From contig CAXXVS010000002.1 in NCBI GenBank assembly GCA_963674755.2, positions 576,001-640,000 on the forward strand: DNA of 64,000 nucleotides, written 5' to 3'. The notes below the pieces were generated by a model, which had not been told where the DNA came from, made no database searches, and saw nothing but the letters and a program-made list of their open reading frames with translations. This document shows positions 58,188-64,000 of the stretch, in pieces. Every line of letters begins with the position of its first letter. The first letter of the stretch is position 1. This DNA is from Desulfobacterales bacterium (lineage in GTDB: Bacteria > Desulfobacterota > Desulfobacteria > Desulfobacterales > UBA5852). The translations under genes and the position numbers were made by a program.

Positions 58188-58263
58188 GGGCCGTTAACTC
58201 AGTCGGTAGAGTATCTGCCTTTTAAGCAGAGAGTCGCTGGTTCGAGCCCAGCACGGCCCACCA
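58188..58263 (+). tRNA. tRNA-Lys(TTT)
   Basis: GGGCCGT/ACGGCCC acceptor stem, TCTGC-CTTTTAA-GCAGA anticodon arm, GGTTCGA, CCA end. Confidence 0.97.
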
Positions 58264-58269
58264 CATTGC

Positions 58270-58347
58270 GTCCCCATCGTCTAGCCCGGTCCAGGACACC
58301 GGCCTTTCACGCCGGCGACAGGGGTTCGAATCCCCTTGGGGACGCCA
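58270..58347 (+). tRNA. tRNA-Glu(TTC)
   Basis: GTCCCCA/TGGGGAC acceptor stem, CCGGC-CTTTCAC-GCCGG anticodon arm, GGTTCGAATCC, CCA end. Confidence 0.97.
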
Positions 58348-58966: not shown

Positions 58967-59908
58967 ATGGACAAGAATTTTACATTTATCCCAAATCATA
59001 TTGAGATTATTGGGGACCTGCCATTTGAAATAATTCCATCCTATTTTTTGAGAAAAGCGAACAACATTGAAATTAATTTAATAACTAAAAATCTTGATTC
59101 TATAGGTAGTCTGATTTCAAAGACAGGGAATCTTCCCTATGCAGTTTCCTTTTCAGACGAAATATTATCTGAGAATGAAGTTTATCTAAAAACCGAGCCT
59201 TTGGATTTCAAAGACTGGAAATATTATGTTGTAGAATACGAAGGACATGGGGAATTATTGCATAAATATCAGTTAACTGCCAATCTTTTTAAGTACCCAT
59301 TGGAGTTTGATGTCTTTCAATTAGAACAATACGAAAATTCTTACGCTTTTTCCTACTCGCCAGATATTGCATACCGATTCTTTGCAGATAATGATCTAAC
59401 AGTGCTACAGACGCTAAATGTCAATGATTTGATTAAATTATCTGAATCATATAAAAAGATGTGTGATATTGAAGCTAAGTATCATGAAATTAAAAACTCA
59501 ATTTTTATATACAATTCATTAAGGTTTTTGCCGAATTACAACGAATATAGAATATTAGGATTGTTTACAGCCATAGAATCTCTGATCACTCACAAGCCTT
59601 CAAAAAAAGAAACAGGAGACTCGTTAACACATCAAATAAAGACTAAAATTCCGTTGCTACTCAACAGAATTGATAGCAGCGAAATATCAGAAAATTATTA
59701 TCAGAAAGAAAAATTAGATACCCTTTGGGGCAAACTTTACGATTATAGAAGTAGCATTGCTCATGGAACCAAAGCTGATTTTAATAAAGAATTACAACTG
59801 TTGGAAAGTCCGATTAAAATAACAGAATATTTATCACTCTGCGTTAAAAATCTAATTCTTTTAGCTCTAGAAGAACCTCAACTAATTCAAGATTTAAGAA
59901 AATGTTAA
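58967..59908 (+). CDS. Cassette 1: ApeA-like HEPN domain protein
   Basis: LFTAIESL...LYDYRSSIAHG (R-x4-H); AT-rich; ORF fills the cassette. Confidence 0.8.
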   Translation: MDKNFTFIPNHIEIIGDLPFEIIPSYFLRKANNIEINLITKNLDSIGSLISKTGNLPYAVSFSDEILSENEVYLKTEPLDFKDWKYYVVEYEGHGELLHKYQLTANLFKYPLEFDVFQLEQYENSYAFSYSPDIAYRFFADNDLTVLQTLNVNDLIKLSESYKKMCDIEAKYHEIKNSIFIYNSLRFLPNYNEYRILGLFTAIESLITHKPSKKETGDSLTHQIKTKIPLLLNRIDSSEISENYYQKEKLDTLWGKLYDYRSSIAHGTKADFNKELQLLESPIKITEYLSLCVKNLILLALEEPQLIQDLRKC

Positions 59909-60457: not shown

Positions 60458-60501
60458 CTTTCACGCCGGCGACAGGGGTTCGAATCCCCTTGGGGACGCC
60501 A
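60458..60501 (+). repeat. attR: duplicated 3' half of tRNA-Glu
   Basis: CTTTCACGCCGGCGACAGGGGTTCGAATCCCCTTGGGGACGCCA is identical to 58304-58347; the 5' half is absent. Confidence 0.95.
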
Positions 60502-60575
60502 ATTTCGCATAACAGGCACCTGATTCGGGTGCCTGATTTACATCGTCCGGCCGACGTGCCGGACGTTGGATGATG

Positions 60576-60609
60576 AAACCCCCGATGCGAATGCATCCGG
60601 GGGTTTTTT
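60576..60609 (+). terminator. Intrinsic terminator after attR
   Basis: AAACCCCCG-ATGC..GCAT-CCGGGGGTTTTTT. Confidence 0.85.
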
Positions 60610-60796
60610 GATGGCGCCGCCTACCGCCAGTTCTTCATCTATCGCTTTTTGCGATCGCTCTAAAGGGTAAAGCGCCACTTTGACTGAAATCTCCCCACTT
60701 ATGATGTTTCTGTGCAACAAATGGGAAAATGAGGTATTATAGAAAATATTCAGGACTGATGGGCTAATAGAACTTAACCAACCGAAGGAAATCACC

Positions 60797-60901: not shown

Positions 60902-61089
60902 GGGCGTCCATAGAATTTTCCCCAAAATTTCATTCGATTGCCTCGCGCTTGTCTTGATCATCTACTCAGAGTGAATATATTGACACTCAGGGCGATTCCG
61001 AGGAGGCGATCGAATCATTCCGCGACAGAATGCCACCATTCTGAATCTGTAGTTGTATACGACCCGCCGCCCATCACCTAGTGCAATGA

Positions 61090-61117
61090 CCATCCATAGA
61101 AGGCATCTTTCGGCCCC
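61090..61117 (-). repeat. Fragment of the palindromic repeat family
   Basis: CCATCCATAGAAGGCATCTTTCGGCCCC matches the copy C arm with 2 mismatches. Confidence 0.6.
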
Positions 61118-61466
61118 GCCGCCGGTGGACCGGGTCCCCGAACGGGGATAACTCCACCTATGGCGGACAAGCCGGGGTTTCCGCTGGTTTTCAATTATAG
61201 AGATAGCGCGCTATTGCTCCGGTTGACAGCTACCGTTGGGAAGCGATCAGACGGGAAATCCCGCGGAGCGGGAAAACGCGCCCGGATCTTGCCAGAAACC
61301 AAAATCTCCCCTTTATGGACGGACACGCACACAGTCGACTTTCCCTGAATTCACCGTCTGCCGTTCATTTCGATAACGGTCGCTGCAAACAGGAAACCAA
61401 TGACGCTATATGTCGCATCTCGGCGACATTCCATTACCATACCCAATGATGAAAGGAGACGGTACC

Positions 61467-63464
61467 ATGAACAAGGTTAGGGGGATGTTGGTTTATCTGG
61501 CGATGGTGTCGGCGGCGCTTATTTTAGCAGCCGTTGGCTGCCAAAGCTTGCAAAATGGCCTGTCGAAGGGTTCCGGCGGGGAATCGAATACAGACACGCT
61601 GGCCAATACGCAAAAAAGCGTGTTGAAGGCGGAACCGGGAACGCCGGACGGCATATTGCTCATGCAGGCCAGATATCTGATCGGTGAGCTTCCCCAGAAG
61701 ATGCCCGGTAGTGAAAACGATACGCCGGCAATGGTGGCACTGGGCAAAAAGCTTTATTTTGAAACGGCCATTTCGATCAACAGGACCCAATCCTGCAACG
61801 ACTGCCACCCCATCGACAACACTAGCGCCGGCGCCGACAACCGGAAAACGGGTTTGGGGGCATTGGGCAAAAACGGGCCGCGCAACGACCCGTCGACCCT
61901 GAATGCCGGGTTTCAAATTGCCCAATTCTGGGATGGCCGGTCACCCGATCTGGCGGACCAGGCCAAAGGCCCGGTACTGAACCCCATTGAAATGGGCATG
62001 CCGGATCCGGCCGAGGTTTTACAACGCCTGAAAACCGCCGGTTACACGCAAGATTTTAAAAATGCCTTTCCGGGCCAGGAAGACCCGTTGACCTACGACA
62101 ATTTTGGTCAAGCCGTCGCCGCCTTCGAGCGGACGCTGATTTCCCGGGCCCGCATCGACCGGTTTATCATGGGTGACGCGGATGCGTTGACGGACCAGGA
62201 AAAAGAGGGCATGCGCCTATTCATGGATGTGGGCTGTATCCAATGTCACAGCGGACCGGTGGTCGGCGGTGCGATGTTCCAGAAAATGGGCATCTTTGAT
62301 GCCTATGCCGATGAAAAGGACAAAGGGCGATACGACGTCACCAAAAATGAGGACGATCTTTTTGTATTCAAAGTCCCCATGCTTCGAAACGCCACGCTCA
62401 CCGCGCCATATTTCCATGACGGTGGCGTTGGAACCATTGCCGAGGCGGTGGATCTGATGGGCAACCTTCAGTTGAACCGCCAGCTCACCAACGAACAAAA
62501 CGACCGGCTGATCCGTTTCTTGACCGCGCTGGCGGACGAAACGCGCACCCAGCCCGCCATGCCCCAGGCCATTAAGGCGGTCAGCGGCCCGACACCGCCG
62601 GACATGGCGACCCTCACCAATGATGCCCAGGGCGAACGCGTGAAATACGGCTATGCCCTGGTCACCGATACCTTCCGTCTGCTGGGCCGCAAAACCGGCG
62701 ATGCCGGCCCGTACTACGTCGGCAACAAACTCGCGTGCACCAATTGCCATCAGGACAAAGGGACCAAAATCTATGGTTTTTCCTGGGTCGGCGTATCCTC
62801 GGCCTATCCCCGGTACCGCGGCCGCGAGGACAAGGTGCAGGGGCTCAAGCAGCGGATCAACGGTTGCTTCCAACGCAGCCTGAACGGCAACCCGCTGCCG
62901 GAGGACAGCAAGGAGATGAATGCGATCGTGGCCTATCTGGACTGGCTCTCCGCCGGCGTCCCCAAGGAGAAGGCGATATTGGGAAGATCACCGTTCACGC
63001 CGCCCCCGCGCATGGCCGACCTGAAAAATGGGGCGGAGCAATATGCGGTGTTTTGTCAGTCATGTCACGGCAGCGACGGGGCCGGCTTCCAGGCGGCCAG
63101 CGATTCCCAGGCCGATGCGGGGGCCTATATCACACCGGCCGTATGGGGCGATGGGAGCTATAACAACGGCGCGGGAGCCAACCGCCTCTTGACCCTGGCG
63201 CCCTTTCTGCAATCCAATATGCCCCTGGGCACGGGGTACCGCCATCCGGTGCTCTCCACGGACGATGCCTACGATGTCGCCGCCTACGTCGATTCGATGC
63301 CGCGCCCCCAGATGGCCAACCTGGCGAAAGACTACCCCAAGCTGATCAAAAAGCCGGTGGATTGCCCCTATCCGCCGTATGCGGATGGGTTTTCGCAGGA
63401 ACAGCATCAGTTCGGCCCGTTTCAGCCTATTATGGCGGCAAGGAAAAACGCCCCGGCGAAATAA
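61467..63464 (+). CDS. Tetraheme lipoprotein: cytochrome c peroxidase fused to TsdA thiosulfate dehydrogenase/tetrathionate reductase
   Basis: Lipobox AVGC; CCP part has CNDCH, QFWDGR, NPIEMG, CIQCH, FKVP.LRN...TAPYFHDG; TsdA part has CTNCH, RINGCFQRS, CQSCH, NMP; AAGGAG RBS. Confidence 0.85.
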   Translation: MNKVRGMLVYLAMVSAALILAAVGCQSLQNGLSKGSGGESNTDTLANTQKSVLKAEPGTPDGILLMQARYLIGELPQKMPGSENDTPAMVALGKKLYFETAISINRTQSCNDCHPIDNTSAGADNRKTGLGALGKNGPRNDPSTLNAGFQIAQFWDGRSPDLADQAKGPVLNPIEMGMPDPAEVLQRLKTAGYTQDFKNAFPGQEDPLTYDNFGQAVAAFERTLISRARIDRFIMGDADALTDQEKEGMRLFMDVGCIQCHSGPVVGGAMFQKMGIFDAYADEKDKGRYDVTKNEDDLFVFKVPMLRNATLTAPYFHDGGVGTIAEAVDLMGNLQLNRQLTNEQNDRLIRFLTALADETRTQPAMPQAIKAVSGPTPPDMATLTNDAQGERVKYGYALVTDTFRLLGRKTGDAGPYYVGNKLACTNCHQDKGTKIYGFSWVGVSSAYPRYRGREDKVQGLKQRINGCFQRSLNGNPLPEDSKEMNAIVAYLDWLSAGVPKEKAILGRSPFTPPPRMADLKNGAEQYAVFCQSCHGSDGAGFQAASDSQADAGAYITPAVWGDGSYNNGAGANRLLTLAPFLQSNMPLGTGYRHPVLSTDDAYDVAAYVDSMPRPQMANLAKDYPKLIKKPVDCPYPPYADGFSQEQHQFGPFQPIMAARKNAPAK

Positions 63465-63573: not shown

Positions 63574-63607
63574 AAATAAGGCCCTGAATTTCAGGGCCTT
63601 ATTTTTT
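63574..63607. terminator. Intrinsic terminator, possibly bidirectional
   Basis: AAATAAGGCCCTGA-att-TCAGGGCCTTATTTTTT. Confidence 0.9.
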
Positions 63608-64000
63608 CTGCACCGCAAAGCGTAAAGGACTATCCTTCCAAATCCACCCGAGCGATGCAGGGCGCACCATTATGCGCCCATCGCGGTGGGGGCCTTCCAT
63701 GGACGACCTGACCTTATAAACTTCAAGCGGCTCTTCTCATTAAACCTTCGGCATGGCGTAATGGCACCGGTCACAGGATGGCATCTTTTAGCCACCAAAG
63801 ATGATGCATCGGGTCGCATTGCGCGCTAGGGTTTCCTCCGTAAAATTCCCCTAAAAATGTTCTGATCGTCCTTATGACCGACCACGATTCCATAGCGGTT
63901 ATGAAATATAATAAAATTATGAAATAGAAAAAAAGGGGGATCGTCACATCTTACCAATACATTACATAACTATCTGAATATATAAAACATTCAAATTTTC

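Follow-up and report, generated by a model that had tools for sequence, protein, structure and literature searches.

Can one protein oxidize thiosulfate with one half and reduce hydrogen peroxide with the other? The question is raised by a gene in a 64,000-nucleotide stretch of DNA from a Desulfobacterales bacterium (assembly GCA_963674755.2, contig CAXXVS010000002.1, positions 576,001 to 640,000), here called the window, within which coordinates are counted. The gene, at 61467-63464 on the forward strand, joins a diheme bacterial cytochrome c peroxidase (bCcP) to the diheme thiosulfate enzyme TsdA. A first-pass annotation made from the letters alone had proposed that the product wires thiosulfate oxidation directly to peroxide reduction. 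This is probably correct; support comes from a docking prediction between the halves, from fusions of the two domains in reverse order, and from neighboring genes for defense against reactive oxygen species (ROS) and for thiosulfate handling. The bCcP-TsdA fusion is real, conserved, and apparently undescribed. Papers are cited below by PubMed Central (PMC) number.

A peroxidase and a TsdA in one reading frame

Translation confirmed the uninterrupted open reading frame described in the first pass: it is single and intact, with 665 amino acids, one stop, and both diheme halves complete. We favor ATG 61467 as the start over ATG 61410 because a Shine-Dalgarno-like AAAGGAG sits 8 nt before it. Pfam assigns CCP_MauG to residues 88-238 (E = 3.5e-48), SoxA-TsdA_cyt-c to 421-499, and Cytochrom_C to 520-611. 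The protein thus runs from an export signal through a diheme bCcP and a linker to a diheme TsdA, with the following features.

61467..63464, + strand: bCcP-TsdA fusion gene, four CxxCH heme sites (translation, Pfam)
61452..61458, + strand: Shine-Dalgarno-like AAAGGAG (from the sequence)
61467..61541, + strand: Sec-type signal with lipobox AVG-Cys25 (crude patterns, no SignalP)
61650..62540, + strand: diheme peroxidase domain, about residues 62-358 (Pfam, PDB matches, Foldseek)
61794..61808, + strand: peroxidatic (P) heme motif C110-C113-H114 (alignment)
61860..61862, + strand: Ala132, at the position of the Pseudomonas aeruginosa bCcP distal His71; Ala in 120/120 homologues (alignment)
61929..61991, + strand: Trp155 (inter-heme relay) and Gln165 with Glu175 (catalytic pocket), equivalent to W94, Q104, and E114 (alignment)
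62235..62459, + strand: electron-entry (E) heme C257-C260-H261, calcium-site Thr312/Pro314, and Met331 ligand (alignment)
62541..62618, + strand: inter-domain linker of nearly fixed length (homologue alignment)
62619..63431, + strand: TsdA domain, about residues 385-655 (Pfam, PDB matches, Foldseek)
62736..62867, + strand: TsdA heme 1 C424-C427-H428, Arg453, Arg463, and catalytic Cys467 (alignment)
63054..63221, + strand: TsdA heme 2 C530-C533-H534 with Asn584-Met585; predicted peroxidase docking face (alignment, complex prediction)

Two separate genes in other reads or in relatives, named in the first pass as one sign against its reading, were not seen. Among the best 120 of 2514 matches (listed clusters), to which all homologue counts below refer, the Pfam domains are identical from protein to protein and the CxxCH motifs always number exactly four, at 50-83% identity. 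Contigs from other runs cross the domain junction without gaps (from two DNA-type runs, X3, 62114-63036, and X7, 62420-62616; from one RNA run, X17, 62481-62690). X17 comes from a rhizosphere metatranscriptome, and as a short contig that could be DNA it is no proof of expression. Together, the homologues and the junction-spanning contigs rule out misassembly or chance read-through.

Two finer claims of the first pass fared less well. Its lipoprotein signal is present in this protein (AVG-Cys25), but a crude lipobox pattern occurs in only 12/120 homologues, and lipoprotein anchoring was rejected as a family trait; a hydrophobic signal-like stretch, by a similarly crude pattern, occurs in 110/120. 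Its Pro/Ala linker is no loose tether, since the spacing from F351 to G395 is 44 residues in 95/120 homologues and 41-45 in 118/120.

Matches for the C-terminal half in the PDB are to TsdA (4wqc, 9e-39) and the TsdBA fusion (5lo9, 3e-32). It has two CxxCH hemes and SoxA/TsdA-type folds, and its template modeling score to 4wq7 is 0.85 by target length. The motifs RINGCFQRS (Cys467) and SNMP (Asn584-Met585) stand as first reported and align with the catalytic Cys and the Lys-Met pair of Allochromatium vinosum TsdA. Residues C467, R463, R470, and R573 of the pocket are found in 120/120 homologues and R453 in 119, the same residues as in the A. vinosum chain, and the heme 2 ligand M585 is in 120/120. 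The half falls short of the NCBIfam SoxA model (53.5 vs 110 bits), and the protein is not a TsdBA, its N-terminal half being a peroxidase with no cytochrome c4-type TsdB.

The Asn-Met pair bears on a different reading, in which both halves are sinks fed from outside by cytochrome or quinol, reducing tetrathionate or peroxide, and the fusion merely co-locates them. We regard this as unlikely. It draws on the same pair occurring in Campylobacter jejuni TsdA, physiologically a tetrathionate reductase (PMC5146829), on hosts that are mostly anaerobic respirers, and on the reversibility of TsdA enzymes. However, Asn is also present in 64/65 stand-alone TsdAs examined, and we rejected it as a marker of direction; in C. 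jejuni TsdA, N254K brought no shift to oxidation, while removal of K252 favored thiosulfate oxidation (PMC5146829). A Lys at the K252 position occurs in 6/120 fused proteins vs 50/65 stand-alone ones, most fused proteins having His, Gln, or Arg. This loss is a weak hint of the oxidation direction, as the natural substitutes are not Gly.

For the N-terminal half, the best PDB matches are classical bCcPs (1nml, 3.5e-70), with MauG reaching only 1e-23. Foldseek on the AlphaFold2 model of the protein returned the same two families, peroxidase and TsdA. Invariant in 120/120 homologues are the four CxxCH motifs, N140, Q165, E175, P314, and M331, with W155 in 118; in P. aeruginosa bCcP these correspond to N79 (N140), Q104 (Q165), E114 (E175), and W94 (W155). 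The half thus has the core features listed for the bCcP superfamily (PMC10094543): P and E hemes, an E-heme Met, an inter-heme Trp, a Gln/Glu pocket, and calcium ligands. It departs from classical bCcPs in having no distal His and no Trp/Gly dimer stack, within a protein of four heme motifs, and from YhjA/QPO in having no CxxCH before residue 110, its extra domains being the C-terminal TsdA. We conclude that the protein is a TsdA plus a bCcP-superfamily peroxidase, and not a classical bCcP, YhjA, MauG, SoxA, or TsdBA; judged by its residues, both halves are complete with the catalytic positions kept.

Could the N-terminal half instead be an oxidant generator of the MauG/MbnH kind, or a plain relay, acting on the TsdA site by modifying or feeding it rather than scavenging peroxide? 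MauG-type enzymes carry a Tyr ligand at the second heme. The half does belong to the CCP_MauG Pfam family, scores against the MauG and MbnH models, and has no classical distal His. Its scores lie far below the cut-offs (128 vs 444 and 168 vs 363 bits), bCcP PDB matches are better than MauG by 40-45 orders of magnitude, the E-heme ligand is an invariant Met (Met331) and not Tyr, and the His-less loop is common to 114/115 stand-alone relatives. We consider this very improbable.

The first-pass annotation overlooked the missing distal His of the peroxidase. At this site His71 is replaced by Ala132 (120/120), and Trp73 by Gly134 (117/120). Classical bCcPs are blocked by the distal His until reduced (PMC10094543), whereas YhjA, with an open site, requires no reductive activation (PMC10301912). 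Because the His is absent, the fused peroxidase is likely active without reductive activation and peroxide-ready at rest. Loss of the His was rejected as an adaptation to fusion: 114/115 close non-fused relatives also have Ala, none has His, and the Ala is inherited. These relatives (P0121-P0240) represent a large subfamily of stand-alone diheme peroxidases in which Ala replaces the distal His.

Named carriers of the fusion are mainly Thermodesulfobacteriota, with some Betaproteobacteria, Bacteroidota, and one alphaproteobacterium; the closest among the matches listed is Desulfosarcina cetonica (83% identity). The spread is patchy. The full-length fusion occurs in 5/400 sampled genomes of the phylum, and a search of 60 genomes related to the host, 12 of them in the same genus, did not find the gene. 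The ESM Atlas adds only a 176-member cluster of unnamed function. Divergent copy pairs (P0009/P0046 and P0243/P0043) suggest two paralogues in some Desulfobacter genomes.

A full-text literature search, with key TsdA papers, subscription peroxidase reviews, and supplements outside its scope, gave no account of a bCcP-TsdA fusion, and the available portions of PMC6548844, PMC4429474, PMC10386464, PMC6449678, PMC9774590, and PMC6879331 mention none. Both enzymes are well studied apart, and no report of their coupling was found in the literature searched. Databases name these proteins only "cytochrome c peroxidase," so they probably go uncounted when sulfur-cycling communities are surveyed for tsdA.

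Predicted docking of the halves and repeated origin of the fusion

We folded the halves, cut as residues 58-362 and 372-660, with four hemes. The docking score was 0.78, compared with 0.02 for the best of three controls. In calibration, the mark is reached by 116/157 solved complexes and 2/215 mismatched pairs, counts that carry over to this case only roughly. Runs agreed in at least 91% of contacts, with a partner pLDDT (predicted local distance difference test) of at least 88. On the TsdA side, the predicted interface comprises residues 524-556 and 586-600, which include Cys533/His534 of the heme 2 motif and the loop after Met585. On the peroxidase side it comprises 309-329 and 339-353 (the calcium loop and helices around Met331 in the E-heme domain), plus 118-125. 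The model thus places the TsdA exit heme, heme 2, on the E-heme domain of the peroxidase. TsdA relays electrons to its redox partner through heme 2 (PMC5146829), and electrons enter the peroxidase at the E heme (PMC10094543). With the peroxidase covering the heme 2 face, the model argues against two externally fed sinks.

The evidence that depends least on structure prediction is repeated fusion. A profile search over 1.84 billion representatives recovered TsdA-peroxidase fusions in reverse order: P0268 with six more full-length clusters, and P0269. All eight carry four heme motifs and the TsdA Cys motif, with Cys and Met kept. In trees, all of which were run in quick mode only, fused TsdA domains of the forward order fall on one side of a branch from 65 stand-alone TsdAs (SH-aLRT, the Shimodaira-Hasegawa-like approximate likelihood ratio test, 100), and fused peroxidase domains, a group that includes five truncated forms, split from 35 stand-alone peroxidases (SH-aLRT 98). 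The forward-order family fits one old fusion. The reverse-order peroxidase domains group with other stand-alone relatives, and that of P0269 with the classical His-bearing type. Approximately unbiased (AU) tests on 35 rows, comparing the forward family with each reverse type, rejected their union (p = 5e-65 and p = 2.5e-4), the first group having received two near relatives after the tree was viewed. Three independent fusions are likely, and two are a firm minimum. Repetition of this kind is easier to explain by donor-acceptor coupling than by co-location of separate sinks.

Adjacent split gene pairs were rejected as precursors, with none at 65 stand-alone tsdA loci or 29 peroxidase-only loci. 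The profile search also returned peroxidase-hemerythrin, peroxidase-cytochrome P460, Tll0287-peroxidase, and TauE-TsdA fusions (P0354, P0376, P0347, and P0404, respectively).

Proposed thiosulfate-dependent peroxide reduction and its genomic context

We propose that the exported four-heme fusion is probably a self-contained periplasmic thiosulfate:H2O2 oxidoreductase. Following TsdA chemistry, thiosulfate would add to Cys467 at heme 1, two electrons would go to hemes 1 and 2, and a second thiosulfate would release tetrathionate, as in the TsdA catalytic cycle (PMC5146829, PMC9562282). Along the docking predicted by the model, electrons would pass from heme 2 to the E heme, Trp155, and the P heme, where Gln165 and Glu175 would cleave peroxide to water, as in bCcP chemistry. 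Each half-reaction would take two electrons, giving a net reaction of 2 thiosulfate + H2O2 + 2 H+ -> tetrathionate + 2 H2O. Its likely role would be to defend the periplasm against peroxide, without drawing on the quinone pool, in sediments that are rich in sulfur and intermittently oxic. The tetrathionate could be recycled by the cell's reductases (two octaheme genes could serve), by SoxB-like hydrolases, or by sulfide, which recycles tetrathionate abiotically. Potentials of homologues permit the electron flow, and the net yield would be ~-220 kJ/mol. The thiosulfate/tetrathionate couple lies at +198 mV and heme 2 of C. jejuni TsdA at +172 mV (PMC9562282); the E heme of YhjA lies at +210 mV (PMC10301912).

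The same wiring might serve another donor, such as polysulfide, persulfide, or sulfite, or its purpose might be to make tetrathionate for TsdA/SoxB sulfur oxidation, with peroxide as the oxidant. C. jejuni TsdA does react with sulfite (PMC9562282), TsdA with SoxB and a dioxygenase is a described thiosulfate-to-sulfur route (PMC7608252), and SoxB-like genes of two divergent types adjoin 9/61 fused loci. Further sulfur genes stand at some: persulfide dioxygenase-rhodanese, YeeE, sulfur oxygenase reductase, DsrE, and sulfate-binding-like neighbors. On the other hand, the Arg pocket and Cys match proven thiosulfate enzymes, and the SoxB-like proteins, while best matching SoxB, are under its cut-off (352-356 and 260 vs 550 bits) and absent at most fusion loci and in the host genome. 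We judge this reading still less likely than externally fed sinks.

Neighboring genes lend modest support to the coupling of thiosulfate to peroxide. Using 60 of 61 fused loci (L004 was left out), a ROS-defense gene (superoxide dismutase, catalase, peroxiredoxin, rubrerythrin, desulfoferrodoxin, or alternative oxidase) was nearby in 10/47 dereplicated fusion groups, compared with 2/65 stand-alone tsdA and 1/29 peroxidase-only loci. For SoxB-like genes, the counts were 7/47, 0/65, and 0/29. Pfam scans of neighbors covered chosen subsets (94 proteins; 76/115; 91/157). Apparent rubrerythrins at two loci matched a rubredoxin-like domain protein, and both were dropped from the ROS count (first count 8/15). 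Neighbors differ between fusion loci, which show no conserved operon. A missing TsdB was uninformative as a sign of replacement, a nearby CxxCH reading frame occurring at just 5/65 stand-alone tsdA loci.

Several observations weigh against the proposed oxidoreductase. The neighbor queries were taken from fusion loci, and the control loci differ in taxonomy. Sulfur-handling neighbors occur at 11/47 fusion groups vs 17/65 stand-alone tsdA and 0/29 peroxidase-only loci, and are thus no commoner than beside tsdA alone; 31/47 fusion groups show neither class. In a metagenome set, a core ROS gene stood at only 6/46 fused loci, two of which repeat loci of the first set and one of which rests on a weak match lost at a stricter cut-off. 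The window's own locus has no neighbor of these kinds, and its host genome has no SoxB over cut-off.

The docking, too, has weaknesses. Its pass may partly reflect likeness to TsdBA, given that the E-heme domain has a cytochrome c fold as well, and two halves of a single gene tend to pass such a test. A single-chain AlphaFold2 model without hemes is weak (pLDDT 66; predicted template modeling score 0.68). In favor of the docking, peroxidase positions conserved only in fused forms are enriched at the interface (8/35 vs 29/300, p = 0.011), and TsdA positions more weakly (7/36, p = 0.058), an enrichment confounded and inflated by shared ancestry. Some members speak against an obligate link. The divergent member P0266 has lost TsdA pocket arginines, and five peroxidase-only proteins, from lineages in which the TsdA half was lost, nest in the fused clade, one of them with no tsdA in its 10-kb locus; the peroxidase half can therefore persist alone, and an outside donor can serve, as two separately fed sinks would require. 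Finally, a thiosulfate level of 280 µM may exceed that in sediments. C. jejuni TsdA has its half-maximal rate at ~280 µM (PMC5146829).

The host genome contains dsrA and cytochrome c assembly genes, and the fusion is its only TsdA. A search of the assembly, which is 97% complete, found no monofunctional catalase. Two octaheme tetrathionate-reductase-like genes score over cut-off; a host already so equipped counts against tetrathionate reduction as the task of the fusion. One octaheme match over cut-off (G000:C3:1218667-1219935) has an in-frame TGA, possibly a selenocysteine or a broken gene. At other fused loci, we observed a cluster, all in one direction, in which the fusion is joined by a stand-alone tsdA and by genes for a cytochrome, DsrE, and a sulfate/molybdate-binding-like protein (L133, L172, L173), and a sulfur oxygenase reductase-like gene (L005:4237-5142, 310 vs 400 bits) adjoining the fusion in a Desulfobacteraceae bin, unexpected in a sulfate reducer.

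Known systems and the surroundings of the gene

The nearest parallel is TsdBA of Marichromatium purpuratum (5LO9), which likewise has four c-type hemes, a C-terminal TsdA with the same Cys, Arg, and Met sites, and an N-terminal diheme partner that accepts electrons. In the fusion, the peroxidase occupies the place of TsdB, the known acceptor for TsdA (PMC9774590, PMC6879331). Whereas the TsdB carrier passes electrons on to respiration, the new partner is itself catalytic and would end the path at H2O2. Like the TsdA of A. vinosum (4WQ7, 4V2K) and C. jejuni, the TsdA half has a His/Cys heme 1, an Arg pocket, and a His/Met heme 2, and it shares with the C. jejuni enzyme the Asn that precedes Met. 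Unlike stand-alone TsdAs, it is fused, the Lys two places before Asn is mostly replaced, and the fused domains form their own branch.

The peroxidase half shares P and E hemes, the Met ligand, the Trp relay, the Gln/Glu pocket, and the calcium site with classical bCcPs (P. aeruginosa 1EB7/2VHD, Nitrosomonas europaea 1IQC, Neisseria gonorrhoeae 6FU3). It differs in the Ala at distal His71, in the Gly at the dimer-stacking Trp73, and in having its own donor enzyme in place of a small cytochrome or azurin. Like the triheme YhjA of Escherichia coli (9QDT), the fusion would feed its E heme from a built-in extra heme domain and is predicted to need no reductive activation. However, the extra domain of YhjA is N-terminal, monoheme, noncatalytic, and quinol-fed, and in YhjA/QPO it sits on a membrane helix; that of the fusion is C-terminal, diheme, and catalytic. 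SoxB-like and dioxygenase-like genes beside some fusions recall the TsdA, SoxB, and sulfur dioxygenase route of Erythrobacter flavus (PMC7608252), but here the SoxB-like neighbors are under cut-off, confined to a minority of loci, and not found in the host genome.

Known kinds of enzyme are joined here in what is likely a new net reaction. We lean, by a small degree, toward a third class of bacterial heme peroxidase with its own donor enzyme, a four-heme wire invented at least three times by which strict anaerobes clear periplasmic H2O2. If so, inorganic sulfur would be a new donor class for bacterial peroxidases and peroxide a new acceptor for TsdA. Sulfate reducers would have an oxidative-stress defense costing no respiratory electrons. 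Were sulfide or reductases to recycle the tetrathionate, thiosulfate would serve as a catalytic antioxidant. Peroxide would also be an unrecognized biological route to tetrathionate in sediments. The fusion offers a natural model for long-range electron transfer linking two catalytic sites.

The fusion gene appears monocistronic. A promoter scan gave hits at chance level only, and one further feature lies downstream:

63574..63610, strand undecided: 14-bp inverted repeat with T-runs, terminator-like, ~110 nt downstream of the gene (scan and sequence)

The scan lists this repeat on the - strand, while a T-run also follows it on the + strand. Composition does not support a recent foreign origin of the gene, its GC content at third codon positions being 0.725 vs a genome median of 0.74.

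On one side of the gene lies a low-GC insert linked to a tRNA, and on the other a cluster of corrinoid methyltransferase genes. On the insert side, tRNA-Lys and tRNA-Glu (58188-58347) are followed by a second copy of the 3' part of tRNA-Glu with its downstream hairpins (60458-60610), 81% identical. Between the copies lies 2 kb of low-GC DNA (GC 0.31) with a 313-amino-acid reading frame at 58967-59908, which had no Pfam match at 1e-6, and a 96-amino-acid membrane-like one; the whole looks like an old integration at a tRNA. Just upstream of the fusion, at 61084-61327, is a dispersed repeat of up to ~240 nt with ~51 sites in the genome (E <= 1e-5) at 65-85% identity, resembling a miniature inverted-repeat transposable element or a repetitive extragenic palindrome. 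The corrinoid cluster, just beyond the window end (L001:6076-12054), encodes a RACo corrinoid activator, a methyltransferase-corrinoid fusion, a UroD-like methyltransferase, and a transporter resembling the major facilitator superfamily, a set typical of O-demethylation.

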